Assembly (NCBI RefSeq): GCF_057098645.1
Contig: NZ_CM169472.1
Length of the DNA stretch: 64,000 bases
Strand: one strand, 5' to 3'
Of the stretch, positions 30,001 through 48,000 are shown piece after piece (position 1 is the first letter of the stretch; each line of letters starts with the position of its first letter). Position numbers: made by a program.

Positions 30001-33000
30001 TTCTCCGCGGTCAGCGCAATGTTGCTGGCGAGTGCATCCAGTGCCGGACGGTGCGGGGAATCGATCTTCTCACCATTGGCATACACGTCGTCGCCAATGC
30101 GCAATACGCGCAGACCACCCAGGCGCACCAGCACATCACCTTGTTTCAGCGCATCGTAGATTTCATCTGGCTGATAAGGCGGCTCTGGCGGCGCGATATC
30201 CAGTTCATGACGTGACTGGGATATAAACTCCCCAAACCATTGCTTAAAGTGTTCCGGCTGGTTGATCAATTCGAGCATCATCTCACGCAGTTTATCCATC
30301 TCTTGCGGCAGAACATCCGCAGGATGAGCGCGAGGTGGAACATCAGGATCGCTGTAGTAGTTGCCGCCCAGTTCACGTTGCAGCACATAATCGGCAAATC
30401 CACTAATCAGTTCCCGCGTATTTGGCGCGCGAAAACCCACGGAATAGTTCATCGCATTTTCCAGCGCGTAGCCTTCATGCGGGAATCCTGGCGGAATATA
30501 AAGAATATCACCAGGCTCCAGCTCTTCATCGATGATGGCTTCGAACGGATCGACCTGTAACAGATCCGGATGTGGGCAGTGCTGTTTCATTTGCAGCTTT
30601 TCGCCCACTCGCCAGCGACGACGACCGGTACCCTGAATGATAAACACGTCGTACTGATCGAGATGCGGGCCGACGCCGCCGCCCGGTACAGAAAAAGAGA
30701 TCATCAGATCATCAATACGCCAGTCCGGTAGTTCACGGAACGGTCGCATCAGCGCGGCGGTCGGCTCATGCCAGTGGTTCACTGCCTGTACCAGTAATGA
30801 CCAGTTGGTTTCACCGAGATGATCGTAGCTTTCGAACGGACCGTGGCTGACCTGCCATTTTCCATCCTGGTGACTGACCAGTCGACTGTCGACTTCGCTT
30901 TCCATCGCCAGACCCGCCAACTCGTCTGGAGAGATCGGGTCAATAAAATTATTAAAGCCGCGTTTTAACACCACCGGGCGTTTCTGCCAGTGACGTTCAA
31001 GAAAATCGGGCCAGTTAAGAGTGAGTTGGTATTCCATGTTAAGCATCCACAGGCTGGTATCTGCAACCGATTATAACGGATGCTTAACGTAATGCGTGAA
31101 GTATGGACATATTTTATCAATTAGTGTTTTTTGCCGTTTCATAATGTTTCAGATTGTTCATTATGTTTTTGATTATAAACAGATTTGTGATTTTCCTTGT
31201 TCCAGCTTGTTTCACGTTGTAGCCCTTTGTGCAACGATCGGTGTAGTTAATGGTGTAGTTAATTGTGATGACCGGAATCAAAATTATGAGCAGAGCACTT
31301 AACAAACTGAGCGATACACAGCTGAGGAAAATCAACGGCACACCCGCCCAAAAAACAGCCTTTCTTAATGACGGTGGAAACCTGAGCGTCAGGCATTCAA
31401 CCAGTGGCCTTTTAACCTGGTATTTCACTTACAGGGCCGGAACGGGAAGGGGGGCACCACCGGAACGCATTAAGCTGGGAAATTATCCTGATCTGAGCCT
31501 GAAATCAGCCAGGGAAAAAGCCGCCCAGTGTCGCGCATGGCTGGCAGAGGGGAAAAATCCACGTCATGAGCTTAATTACACCGTACAGGAAGCGTTAAAG
31601 CCGGTAACGGTTGGCGATGCGCTCACCTACTGGCTTGAGTCGTACGCAAAGGAAAACCGCGTGGATTATGCCGCCCTGAAAAAGCGCCTTAATAATCACG
31701 TAATACAGCACATTGGTGCTATGCCGCTGGATAAATGCGAGCTACGGCACTGGCTGGCCTGTTTTGACCAGGTGGCAAAGCGAACGCCTGTTACTGCCGG
31801 ATTCTTGCTACAGACGTGCAAACAGGCGCTTAAGTTCTGCCGGAGGCGGCGCTATGCAATCAGCAACGTTCTTGATGATATGAGTGTGGCGGACGTTGGG
31901 AAAAAACCGGATATAAGCGAGCGTGTCTTAAGCACCAAAGAACTGGGCGAATTATTGCAGGCACTGGACAAAAAAATATTCTCCCCCTACTACATCGCGT
32001 TAATCCGCCTCCTGATTGTGTTCGGATGCCGGACGGTAGAACTGAGGTTATCGGAGATCAGCGAGTGGGATTTTACCGAAATGCTCTGGACCGTGCCGAA
32101 AGAACACAGCAAAACGAAGGTGGCAATATTCCGGCCCATACCGGAAGCAATACTGCCGTTCGTCACGCAGCTGGTGGAGCAGAACAGGCACACGGGTTTA
32201 TTGCTGGGGGAAGTGAAACAGGAAACAAGCGTGTCGCAGTACGGCAGATTAGCGCATAGGAGGCTAAATCACCCTCACTGGTCACTACATGACATCCGGC
32301 GCACCTTTACAACGATGCTGAACGATTTAGGCGTGGATCCTCACGTCGTGGAGCAGCTTACAGGCCACCAGATGCCAGGAATGCAGCGAGTTTATAATCA
32401 TTCCCGTTATCTGGATGCTAAACGCAATGCGCTGGATATGTGGACGGAGCGGTTAGGGATACTGGCGGGAACACATGAAAACGTAACCACGCTACCAGTA
32501 GCCAGAAGAAAATAATTTTTTTCGTGTTTTTTCAGCATGCGCATACTGGATATGCGAACAGATACAACGTGCAACAATGAGCAACAATGTGGAACAACCA
32601 CGAACAAGAGGCGAAAAAGCGTACGGATTTATAAGTAGCTGATTTTTAATGCGTTACTGGTTTTTTATACACTAGCGAATCACTCTTTAAAGAGCGAGAA
32701 AAAAGGCATGAAACAATATTTTATGCCTTTGTATTAACATGAATTTAAAAGATTTTATTCTTACTGTTTCATTTTCTGTAAATCATACATCCTCAGTATT
32801 TGCCATTCATCACTCTAGCGGGAACAATACGACACAATAAGACACCTGATGACTCTTTAAGAAACGAAAGGGGGCAATAGTGTTAAGCACTGATCGGTTT
32901 ATACGTGAAAAAGAATGCGAAAAACTAACCGGCCTTAGCCGTACGTGTCGCTACCGCCTGGAAAAGGCCGGACAATTCCCATCACGTCGTAAACTTGGCG

Positions 33001-45000: not shown

Positions 45001-48000
45001 TTGCAGATCTGCAACTCGACCATGAAACTACGGAAACTACCCGTAGTTTGGGTAGTAAGAGTAACACCCAGATTTTGGGGCTTACTCGTGATACCCAAAT
45101 TTGGGGTATCGGTGGCAACCATAACGACTTTCGTTACGGTTGATGCTTTTACCCCATTGGGGGAAAGGTATTACGATAATCATAACACCTACCGAACAGG
45201 TAAAGCCCACCAGCCTGATTAACGTTTAACCGGAAAAAAATTCCGGTAGGTGGGGATCCCCATATAGACATTAACGCCCCTCATGAATTGGTGTGCTTCC
45301 CCCTGGAAAGATGATCCGCCTGTATATTTCTTGTGTCTATTTGTTCCACGTTGTTTCATACAGTGCACCGAACGGTGTAGTCACTGGTGTAGTCATTTTG
45401 CGATTTTTGGCACTTTTTGTGGTGTTAATTATTTAATTAAATCAATGTGTTATGCGAAATAAGTTATATATAACAGCAATAAATAATGCGAGAATAAACG
45501 GCACGATGATCTCGGCGGCAAAACGGATACCGCAGAGAATAATGACCAGCATTCCCAACATAATGACGATTTTTAGGCCATTGAGCGTGATGATCGGCTT
45601 TGCCATGCTTGTCCCCGTTTTTTCTTCCTTTGCTAATAATAATGTCTTTTTCGCTCCGTCATCATAACGAAAATCAAACCGCTCAGGTAAAGAAGTGAAA
45701 ATATTTTGAGTTAATTCTTAAGCTATGATACAAATCAGGCGTGTTCAACTACCGAGGACAATTATCATCCGCGATGACGAGAAGCAACACTGCGGATAAT
45801 TGTAATATTATGGACAATTTGTTCAGGACGTTATTTTCTACATTTACCCATCTTCGTACCTCATCCACTATCTTGCTCGTAGGTGAGCAGCACTGGCGCA
45901 ACGCGCTTTAGTCCTTTCTTCTGCCAAAGCTTGCGCTAAGCGCGGGGCTTGACCACTTTACTTTGGTTTCGCTGAATTAAGCGAAAATTAAAATAATTCT
46001 CTTGCAGGAGAAGGACAATGTATATTTATTGGATTTTATTAGGTCTGGCTATTGCTACAGAAATTACCGGTACGCTGTCCATGAAATGGGCGAGCGTCAG
46101 TGAGGGAAATGGCGGTTTTATTTTAATGCTGGTGATGATTTCTCTGTCGTATATATTTCTCTCTTTCGCCGTTAAAAAAATCGCCTTAGGCGTAGCTTAT
46201 GCGCTGTGGGAAGGTATCGGTATTTTATTTATTACCTTGTTTAGCGTTTTGTTATTCGACGAAAGTTTATCGCTGATGAAAATTGCCGGGTTAACCACCC
46301 TGGTCGCCGGGATTGTGTTGATAAAATCAGGTACCCGTAAAGCGCGTAAACCTGAACTGGAGGTGAACCATGGCACAGTTTGAATGGGTTCACGCCGCCT
46401 GGCTGGCATTGGCAATCGTGCTGGAAATCGTTGCTAACGTCTTTTTGAAATTTTCTGACGGCTTTCGTCGCAAAATATTTGGCTTGCTCTCCCTGGCGGC
46501 GGTGCTGGCTGCCTTTAGTGCGCTTTCTCAGGCCGTTAAAGGGATCGACTTGTCTGTCGCTTATGCATTGTGGGGCGGGTTTGGTATTGCCGCCACGTTA
46601 GCCGCAGGTTGGATCTTGTTTGGTCAACGGTTAAATCGTAAAGGCTGGATTGGCCTGGTCTTGCTGTTGGCTGGAATGATCATGGTGAAACTTGCCTGAT
46701 GAAGACGCTGCCCGCGCTGTCGGGCAGCGTTTGAACATTATTTTTGCGACAGTTGATCCAGCTTGTCGCGAAAACCGGTAACAGAAATGGCCCGGTTATC
46801 GGCGCGCCAGCGATCTTTCGCGGCAGGAGCCGAACTTTGCACCCCAATTAATTGCCAGCCGTCATCGGTATGCAACATCAGAGGCGAACCGCTGTCACCC
46901 GGCAAGGTATCGCACTGATGTGACATCACCGACGTTTGCGCCCAGCCAGTCACTTCACAGTTTTGATGACTGTACAACGTATCGAGATGATCTTCAGGGT
47001 ATCCTGCCTGAGTCACTTTACGACCTGCCGCTTTTAATGCGGCGGTAAGCGCGGCTTTATCTCCCTCAAATAACGGCAACGGTGTAATGCCAGAAGGGGG
47101 ATTACGTAGCACAATCAATCCGAAGTCCCACGGCGCGGCTGCGGGAGGTATAATCCAACCATCCCCATCTGCTTTTAACCTCTTTCCCAGTGTCGGATCA
47201 ACGCGGCCTTCTATGTCGTGGATGTCATAGCGCCAAAGACCTTTATTTGACACAAAACGCAGCGCCACTGCTTTATCGGCTTTACCCTTTGGAGGTGTCA
47301 ATAAACAGTGTCCTGCCGTTAATGCCAGATTGGGTGCAATCAGCGTCGCCGTACATAAATTGCCGCTGGCCGTTTCCAGTTGCCCAACCGCATCCCACGG
47401 TGATTGGGTCGTGTCATTCACTGGCACACGATCATCATGACCAAAAAACAGGGTGCTAACCTCATCGTTTGCCGATTTGGCAACGTCTGGTTTATCTGCA
47501 AACACAAAAGCAGACGTCAAACTAATTGCACCCAACACTACAGCAATGGTTGTACGCATATCACACTCTGGTGGGTAATTATGATTATTAAAAGCAAACC
47601 CTCATAAATACTATAGACGGGACGGGATGAAAGTGGGAGTAAAATCAGATAACTACAGTCAGGAAAGATAAAAACGGGCGGCAATCAGTGCGCATAAAAT
47701 AAGGATGATAAGAATGAACTCAAAGCGATAACGGCCCACCATACTACCCTCCGCTAAAGGCGGTGCTAAACGTTACCCGCTTAGCACCGTAATTTTCAGG
47801 CGCGAGGGGGCGCGCCAGCATTACTGTTGAAAACTTATGCTGCGGGTTGTGCAGCAGGTTTTGCCGGTTGCTGATGGCTGTGTTTCCCGGCGTGTTTCTT
47901 CGCTGCCTGCGCTTTTTGTTCAGGGGCTTTCTGTTCAGCTTTCGTATTTTTATGATGCTTTTTAGCCGCCTGCGCTTTCTGGGCAGGTGCTGCTTTATGC

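Follow-up and report, generated by a model that had tools for sequence, protein, structure and literature searches.

The 64-kb window analysed here (64,000 nucleotides of contig NZ_CM169472.1, assembly GCF_057098645.1) carries, between roxA and a 5' remnant of tqsA, a compact integrative element with its own capsid and packaging genes. Delimited by its attachment (att) cores, the element occupies positions 31105–45478 (14.4 kb) and has no tail and no lysis genes. Its junctions were set by comparison with the empty sites of K-12, which places the left one in the roxA–phoQ intergenic region and the right one inside tqsA; phoQ, pntB and the remainder of tqsA are absent from the window. The extent given in the original prediction, 31190–45462, was about right, the true limits lying 85 bp further left and 16 bp further right. 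A tRNA/tmRNA scan of the window found no such gene, and neither att site lies within one.

The features of the element are listed in Table 1. Families were assigned by PHROGs and NCBIfam searches, and Pfam domains were taken from pre-computed matches on identical or near-identical public proteins. Every gene named in the original prediction is present on the + strand with significant family matches, the divergent regulator lying on the - strand, and all genes are intact except for one small terminal open reading frame (ORF), that of phrog_1561. The capsid, packaging and other listed genes have no internal stops and equal their homologues in length, with the major capsid protein (MCP), protease and portal all full length; a frameshifted capsid or terminase, named beforehand as a possible sign of decay, was not seen. 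The identified genes fill the element and so leave no room for tail, baseplate or lysis genes. None was found inside it, no uncalled stretch is longer than 816 bp, and no PHROG family was matched by the leftover ORFs tested. The nearest tail genes belong to a separate prophage more than 15 kb upstream. With the gene map saturated between the att cores, the claim that such genes are missing stands.

Table 1. Features of the element and its junctions, in window coordinates, with amino-acid identity to the EcCIEDL933 counterpart where compared.
Feature	Position	Strand	Basis	Identity to EcCIEDL933 (%)
attL core, roxA/phoQ type, GGACATATTT	31105–31114	.	K-12 identity stops here; same core at both ends of 6 roxA-site relatives	
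TTGTT-phased array, P' arm	31197–31220	+	motif scan	
P' arm tandem GGTGTAGTTA repeats, candidate Int arm-type sites, rox variant	31240–31261	+	repeat comparison	
int, P4-like tyrosine integrase, roxA-site type	31286–32515	+	phrog_1 5.9e-73; Pfam Arm-DNA-bind_3 + Phage_integrase	100
Candidate site of AlpA autoregulation: TTGTT-phased array upstream of alpA	32564–32607	-	motif scan	
alpA, excisionase-like master activator (role from prototype literature)	32880–33068	+	phrog_2790 2.5e-17; Pfam Phage_AlpA	100
Two small leftward genes (61-aa ORF + 65-aa protein)	33443–33883	-	ORF listing + family search	
YlcI/YnfO (DUF3950) gene, 65 aa, divergent	33686–33883	-	phrog_949 1.9e-27; NF041551; PF13132 on identical L010 protein	
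Three copies of palindrome TGTGCGCACA, candidate operators, divergent promoter region	33911–33990	.	repeat search	
Icd-like gene, 66 aa	34095–34295	+	PHROGs/NCBIfam	
Three small ORFs	34285–34974	+	ORF listing	
DUF4222 gene	34980–35279	+	PHROGs/NCBIfam	
repA, RepA-family replication helicase (AAA_25), 466 aa	35276–36676	+	phrog_2850 1.9e-261; PF13481 on identical protein	
Replication origin with AT-rich centre (36760–36800), at least 8 RGTGGGGA iterons and copies in inverted orientation	36679–36881	.	repeat search	
orf83 (phrog_1231), before SSB	starts 36878	+	PHROGs	
Switch interval between parental types, inside orf83, 27 bp	36907–36933	.	last L028/L019 mismatch 36906; first L010 mismatch 36934	
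SSB	37126–37536	+	PHROGs; PF00436 on identical protein	97.8
PerC-family regulator	37547–37819	+	PHROGs; PF06069 on identical protein	
Intrinsic-terminator-like hairpin + T run, ahead of capsid operon	37826–37843	+	sequence scan	
TTGTT-phased array ahead of capsid operon, behind terminator-like hairpin	37867–37891	+	motif scan	
HK97-fold MCP	38108–39265	+	TIGR01554 5.4e-88; phrog_10; Pfam Phage_capsid	99.2
S78 prohead protease	39305–39877	+	phrog_80; Pfam Peptidase_S78	99.5
Portal	39879–41090	+	phrog_12; Pfam Phage_portal	99.5
Head closure Hc1	41087–41425	+	phrog_25/TIGR01563; Pfam Phage_HCP	96.4
Head-tail adaptor Ad1	41422–41718	+	phrog_40; Pfam Phage_connect_1	99.0
HNH endonuclease	41718–42158	+	phrog_144; Pfam HNH	98.6
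orf60 (60 aa), counterpart of EcCIEDL933 gene 1792	42142–42324	+	position + gene numbering	
Candidate cos region, 122-bp gap upstream of terS	42325–42446	.	position by analogy	
TerS, P27 family	42447–42803	+	phrog_83/TIGR01558; Pfam Terminase_4	100
TerL	42787–44448	+	phrog_9; Pfam TerL_ATPase/TerL_nuclease	98.7
phrog_1561 gene, nonsense codon GAG->TAG at 44651–44653	44462–44743	+	63 aa left instead of 93 aa	
TTGTT-phased array, P arm	45331–45355	+	motif scan	
P arm tandem GGTGTAGTCA repeats, tqsA-type variant	45374–45395	+	repeat comparison	
attR core, tqsA type, ATAACAGCA, non-cognate with attL	45470–45478	.	K-12 comparison + typing of relatives	
tqsA 5' remnant (nt 1–137)	45470–45606	-	sequence comparison	

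The capsid-forming members among phage-inducible chromosomal islands, or cf-PICIs, are defined by a capsid and packaging gene set together with the absence of tails and holins (10.1101/2022.09.08.507074; PMC10085698). The element contains all 11 core components of the cfPICI model of SatelliteFinder (PMC10085698) and neither of the two forbidden ones (tail, holin/lysis). Its left module comprises an integrase (phrog_1), an AlpA-type regulator (phrog_2790) and a replication protein (AAA_25/phrog_2850) with adjacent iterons. The capsid set consists of MCP (TIGR01554/phrog_10), protease (phrog_80) and portal (phrog_12), accompanied by the connectors Ad1 (phrog_40) and Hc1 (phrog_25/TIGR01563), and the packaging set of HNH (phrog_144), TerS (phrog_83/TIGR01558) and TerL (phrog_9). 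Matching attL and attR that would allow excision are not found, the cores being GGACATATTT and ATAACAGCA and the arm repeats of differing type. This mismatch leaves family membership by descent intact and bears on the functional, mobile status of this copy.

The prototype EcCIEDL933 of E. coli O157:H7 EDL933 (Alqurainy et al., 10.1101/2022.09.08.507074; He et al., 10.1101/2025.02.11.637232) was read directly from the EDL933 chromosome for comparison. The nine head and packaging proteins, orf60 included, are 96.4–100% identical to their counterparts there. It sits between roxA and phoQ with its GGACATATTT cores 15,461 bp apart (published length 15.4 kb), shares the left junction on the roxA side and the gene order of our element, and lies just downstream of the same nleL/espN/espK lambdoid prophage that forms the left flank in the window. 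The 60-residue product of orf60 is identical to that of L008, an O157:H7 element near-identical to EcCIEDL933; mutation of the prototype counterpart, gene 1792, severely cut transfer (10.1101/2022.09.08.507074). The MCP residues Asp257, Lys290, Asp295, Glu319 and Arg345 are all conserved; their mutation impaired or abolished transfer of EcCIEDL933. The main difference is in the replication protein, RepA/AAA_25 (466 aa) with its own iterons in the window and a DUF927 protein (710 aa) in EcCIEDL933. The small-gene region also differs, a 225-nt ORF after perC in the prototype is absent here, the total length is 14.4 rather than 15.46 kb, the phrog_1561 gene carries a nonsense codon unlike that of the prototype, and the right end is a tqsA-type attR where EcCIEDL933 has its cognate roxA/phoQ attR.

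On sequence grounds, the element is a cf-PICI of the EcCIEDL933 type, and the initial reading of a tail-less, capsid-encoding integrative satellite is borne out by the component count and the near-identity to the prototype. Helper-dependent induction, small capsids and tail-dependent transfer have been demonstrated experimentally for EcCIEDL933 (10.1101/2022.09.08.507074; 10.1101/2025.02.11.637232), and the same behaviour, with transfer needing only tails, is inferred for the window element from the 96–100% protein identity. The element is not new: the family has been described, the left junction is that of the prototype, and the class is known and common. Of 5,426 complete E. coli genomes, 394 contain relatives of the packaging module at 80% coverage or more, and published work on cf-PICIs, which were described in 2022–2023, gives a frequency of 13% of Enterobacteriaceae genomes.

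The genes for head and packaging come from phage, and one could picture an HK97-like prophage stripped of its tail and lysis genes. The left half, however, is the int–alpA–rep module of a PICI and not a phage immunity and replication region, the order MCP–protease–portal–connectors–HNH–terS–terL is that of cf-PICIs, and the boundaries are precise att junctions. The same 14–15.5 kb architecture is intact in hundreds of genomes and is experimentally a satellite in EDL933, so that the comparison with EcCIEDL933 effectively refutes a degraded prophage. Two other satellite classes were considered. Classical PICIs of the EcCICFT073 type hold only capsid-remodelling, decoration and terS genes (Phage_cap_E, HDPD, Nu1-type) without portal, adaptors, HNH or terL, and this class was rejected on account of the portal, adaptors and TerL in the window. 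The classical PICI at the roxA site of O145:H28 strain 12E115 (L004) nevertheless has the same int–alpA–regulator–rep–ssb–perC left half, with Int 99.5% and AlpA 100% identical to those of the window, and the same att site, arm repeats and Chi density. A P4-like satellite was rejected on gene content, only the integrase and AlpA being P4-like; no element ORF received a PHROG, NCBIfam or Pfam assignment to Psu, Delta, Sid or the alpha primase-helicase.

We were struck by the ends of the element. Group members in public genomes sit at one of two sites, roxA/phoQ (FORC_042, O157:H7, O55:H7, O145:H28 12E115, EDL933 and several draft contigs) or inside tqsA (MBT-5, L001; 12E115, L003; GCA_032290885.1, L019/L028), and the two sites have distinct cores. 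In all 11 relatives typed at both ends, attL and attR are cognate with each other and with the Int type (one further roxA-site locus was typed at one end only). The window alone is mixed, combining a roxA-type Int and attL with a tqsA-type attR, each att end being so typed by both core and junction. Its location between roxA and a tqsA remnant had been recognized correctly in the original prediction, and the consequence, one end of each type, overlooked.

The two parental sequences can be followed to either side of a short interval. Positions 25276–36933 differ by 2 mismatches from L010, a roxA...phoQ element (SRR32768194), and from 36934 onwards the divergence is 1–7%; conversely, positions 36907–54448 differ by about 4 mismatches from the tqsA-site elements L019/L028, with strong divergence upstream of 36906. 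A roxA/phoQ-site element therefore accounts for the left flank and the left 5.8 kb (attL, int, alpA, regulators, repA and origin), and a tqsA-site element for the right flank and the 8.5 kb from orf83 to attR. The switch directly follows the iterons, so the cognate origin was inherited along with RepA. Across this 8.5 kb, with attR and the 5' remnant of tqsA included, L019/L028 and the window differ at just 2 positions; the nonsense codon of the last gene is shared with L019, L025 and L028 and was therefore inherited from the tqsA-site parent. At their left end the tqsA-site cf-PICIs carry the 3' portion of tqsA together with an attL and an Int of tqsA type, this Int being about 90–91% identical to that of the window; the left end in the window has roxA instead, with attL and Int of roxA type. 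This comparison shows the element to be a recombinant of a roxA-site and a tqsA-site element. The same hybrid was not encountered elsewhere: none of the 5,426 complete E. coli genomes joins both flanks through one element (best coverage 88%), and exact-protein look-ups with RepA, TerL and the L019-type RepA returned about 30 contigs, all with cognate ends.

Hybrid ends might also arise if two ordinary cf-PICIs, one at roxA/phoQ and one in tqsA, had been joined through shared sequence during assembly. The parental types do share long stretches of 97–99% identity in the packaging module, repeats of the kind that mislead assemblers. The switch, however, lies in a 27-bp shared interval amid strongly divergent sequence and not in the near-identical packaging module, and the window has no break across sequence that is multi-copy in the lineage (lambdoid tail genes, IS fragments, effector genes), which suggests a long-read or finished assembly. 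We consider misassembly unlikely, with perhaps one chance in ten of explaining the junction.

Both backbone flanks are those of E. coli O145:H28. The left flank shows 1 mismatch in 4,705 bp against 12E115, and the right flank 1–2 mismatches in about 4.4 kb against RM12761 and 12E115. About 0.53 Mb separates these flanks in O145:H28 RM12761, where the roxA side is on one strand and the tqsA-5'/mdtJ side on the other; K-12 has the same arrangement, with a distance of about 0.5 Mb. If satellites at the roxA and tqsA sites crossed over in such opposite orientation, the segment between them would be inverted and exactly the observed junction would result. Most likely, then, the window holds one endpoint of an inversion of about 0.5 Mb, produced in an O145:H28 chromosome by homologous recombination between two resident satellites. 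Deletion was considered as well and rejected. It needs the sites in direct orientation, as in 12E115, and would lose about 0.5 Mb including the terminus; given the essential genes in the roxA–tqsA interval, such a loss would presumably be non-viable.

Inversions bordered by prophages or integrative elements have been documented in O145:H28 (Cooper et al., 2014; PMC3893438). They resemble the present case in lineage and in having homologous mobile elements as endpoints of a large inversion. The case differs in that the partners are two satellites of different att specificity, so that attL and attR became uncoupled, and a limited literature search turned up no paper describing such uncoupling by satellite recombination. 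Among complete O145:H28 genomes the roxA and tqsA loci are in opposite orientation in RM12761, RM13516 and RM12275-C1 and in the same orientation in 12E115, RM8988-C1 and RM8995-C1; the presence of both arrangements indicates that large inversions around the terminus recur in the lineage. Strain 12E115 carries both a classical PICI at roxA (L004) and a cf-PICI in tqsA (L003).

The mixed ends have a predicted functional cost. Arm repeats differ by one base between the types, GGTGTAGTTA in roxA-site and GGTGTAGTCA in tqsA-site elements; in the window the left repeats read TTA/TTA and the right ones TCA/TCA. Across relatives the repeat variant co-varies with Int type, and of 22 Int substitutions fixed between the types 17 fall in the first 57 residues, the arm-binding domain; this covariation supports the view that the repeats are Int arm-type sites. 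When the shared P' arm is used as anchor, the two cores agree at no more than about 1 of 7 positions, and recombination by tyrosine recombinases depends on homologous overlap regions. With such cores Int-mediated excision of this copy should fail, or at best be very inefficient, and the copy is probably immobile though genetically competent. The attP/attB excision PCR proposed earlier would probably give a negative result.

Taken as a whole, our preferred explanation is an EcCIEDL933-type cf-PICI that is recombinant, marks an inversion endpoint and is blocked in excision, and we put its probability at about 0.65. Several points weigh against it. The inversion is deduced from one junction, the reciprocal junction lying outside the window. 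The predicted excision block draws on the general behaviour of tyrosine recombinases, and the cognate roxA-type attR itself holds one GGTGTAGTCA repeat, so the arm-repeat mismatch alone is probably tolerated. The chimeric orf83 allele, outside the window, turned up only at another site, in classical PICIs of no close relation, and so is not a marker unique to the event; each RepA type is seen at either att site, and the family is highly mosaic. The exchange behind the hybrid ends therefore need not lie at 36907–36933, although on the sequences compared that interval remains the most parsimonious exchange point.

The block is also the point at which a different view of the same hybrid island has to be weighed, namely that its mixed ends are real and it still moves, because the heterologous core is tolerated, because frequent re-inversion restores cognate ends or because help comes from the tqsA-type Int of the reciprocal copy. 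It would then behave as an ordinary working satellite, as the original prediction assumed. All genes for replication, capsid and packaging are intact, the two Int types are about 90% identical and share nearly the same arm repeats, with one GGTGTAGTCA already present in the roxA-type attR, and the variable orientation of the two loci in O145:H28 points to frequent large inversions. Against these stand the near-absence of core homology and the cognate ends of every relative typed at both, the latter suggesting that mixed ends are not a stable, transmissible state. We judge continued mobility unlikely, at about one chance in five, and prefer the excision-blocked recombinant.

The prophage upstream of the island encodes an HK97/lambda-like siphoviral tail set, and it had been put forward as a candidate helper with a possibly defective K gene. 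The second suspicion is confirmed: gene K (C40-peptidase tail gene, about 8146–8884) has a 1-nt insertion near 8225 (GGAAGGGGG versus GG-AGGGGG in the O55:H7 homologue), a +1 frameshift after about codon 27. The frameshift makes the adjacent prophage a weak helper candidate. In EDL933, where the neighbouring prophage is homologous, the authors conclude that none of the 17 resident prophages induces EcCIEDL933; the helpers found were HK106 and HK446 (10.1101/2022.09.08.507074). The proposed helper role was thus not upheld, and the adjacency of prophage and satellite is conserved lineage synteny.

Excision of the prototype requires AlpA, its master activator (10.1101/2022.09.08.507074); T=4 capsids of about 47 nm are built from its own MCP, its own cos DNA is packaged and the tail-less heads need phage tails. 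By analogy, a helper phage would switch on alpA, and AlpA would activate the island and, with Int, drive excision. RepA would then replicate the island from the iteron origin, and MCP, protease and portal would build a small T=4 capsid. HNH, TerS and TerL would package island DNA from its own cos, and the adaptor and head-closure proteins would finish a tail-less head, infective only once joined to a siphoviral tail. By analogy with cos phages that have HNH, TerS and TerL, the cos of the element probably lies in the 122-bp gap upstream of terS. The copy in the window would remain immobile unless the inversion reverts, despite its intact replication, capsid and packaging genes.

A possible control circuit is suggested by a TTGTT motif with 10-bp phasing (TTGTTCCACGTTGT, allowing up to 2 mismatches), found 6 times in the element where 0.45 would be expected in the whole window. 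The copies near alpA lie 275–315 nt upstream of that gene, and every E. coli cf-PICI examined has the arrays at the same four positions, L008 sharing both the arrays and the arm repeats. The capsid-proximal array is found in cf-PICIs, whereas in the classical PICI L004 no array precedes the morphogenesis genes. We tentatively propose, at somewhat less than even odds, that the arrays are AlpA (Xis-like) sites coupling excision, autoregulation and activation of the capsid operon. A scan of genome contigs for distant relatives gave three informative elements, from Citrobacter, Erwinia and Gilliamella (66–69% MCP identity); in that of Gilliamella, with an 18-bp att core and tandem arm repeats, no motif common to the arms and the region upstream of MCP was found.

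Some individual assignments need qualification. The 'RHH regulator with operators' of the original prediction corresponds to a real gene with repeated palindromes, but the protein is assignable only to YlcI/YnfO (DUF3950), and the RHH fold is not shown; a sequence search with the 65-residue protein against solved structures gave chance-level matches only. Similarly, the 'RepA-like primase/helicase' has a helicase-type AAA_25 domain, its only Pfam assignment, whereas 'primase' is not established, the N-terminus giving a weak match to a PHROG primase family (1.7e-13). The iterons predicted downstream of RepA do follow repA directly. A 389-residue ORF at 33126–34295 is annotated as a gene in some public contigs (e.g. 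L011, L024 and L027). It is an open-frame extension of the 66-residue Icd-like gene, overlaps the two leftward genes and matches a family (Icd-like) in its last 66 residues only; most probably its annotation as a gene is an artefact.

A single block (36509–36906) comprises the 3' end of repA and the iteron origin and is exchanged as a unit between otherwise near-identical elements, with about 119 differences in 400 bp from L019/L028, which suggests a swap of replicon specificity (initiator C-terminus plus iterons). An Rfam scan of 30500–46500 (E<=0.1) found no RNA family, and in a promoter scan promoter-like sites were no more frequent than in shuffled sequence, so no promoters were assigned from it. 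Beyond the hairpin of Table 1, one with an 18-bp stem (TTTTCCCGCCTGTTAATG ... CATTACCAGGCGGGAAAA; 37968–38017) separates the TTGTT array from the capsid start codon, and a strong terminator-like one directly follows the capsid gene (39275–39296); jointly these two may set transcription and dosage of the capsid operon.

Chi octamers (GCTGGTGG) are unusually dense in the element, which holds 16 of the 21 in the window (9 on the + and 7 on the - strand; 32170–45214), or 1.11 per kb. The left flank (1–31114) has 0.03 per kb and the right flank (45470–64000, 18.5 kb) 0.22 per kb, so that Chi is about five-fold denser in the element than on the right and far denser than on the left; shuffled sequence predicts 1.9 for the whole window. 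The same density is seen in L008, in one tqsA-site cf-PICI and in two classical PICIs. An 18-nt perfect inverted repeat (44071–44088 and 45202–45219) consists of two opposed Chi-containing words. The enrichment may reflect a strategy of RecBCD evasion by the satellite; family searches of the element identified no Gam-type RecBCD inhibitor, and a literature search turned up no paper on Chi enrichment in such satellites.

A more speculative outcome, to which we give little credence, follows from the state of the chromosome. If recombination inverted about 0.5 Mb with the terminus and left both satellites non-cognate, a locked cf-PICI could still answer a helper, replicate in situ and package chromosomal DNA from cos. 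Tail-less small capsids would then be filled with neighbouring host DNA, from the tqsA'-mdtJI-ynf side or the rep side, in analogy to the 'doc' particles of lambda or to lateral transduction, and a selfish satellite would have become a local device for chromosomal gene transfer.

The covariation of the Int N-terminal domain, arm repeats and core amounts to a readable specificity code, or switch, for this integrase family, and the Chi sites and TTGTT arrays offer testable hypotheses on RecBCD evasion and on AlpA control of excision and the capsid operon. More generally, satellites of different integration specificity can recombine, rearrange the chromosome around the terminus in the EHEC lineage and strand themselves in doing so, and such stranding matters for how satellite counts and 'intactness' are read in genome surveys.

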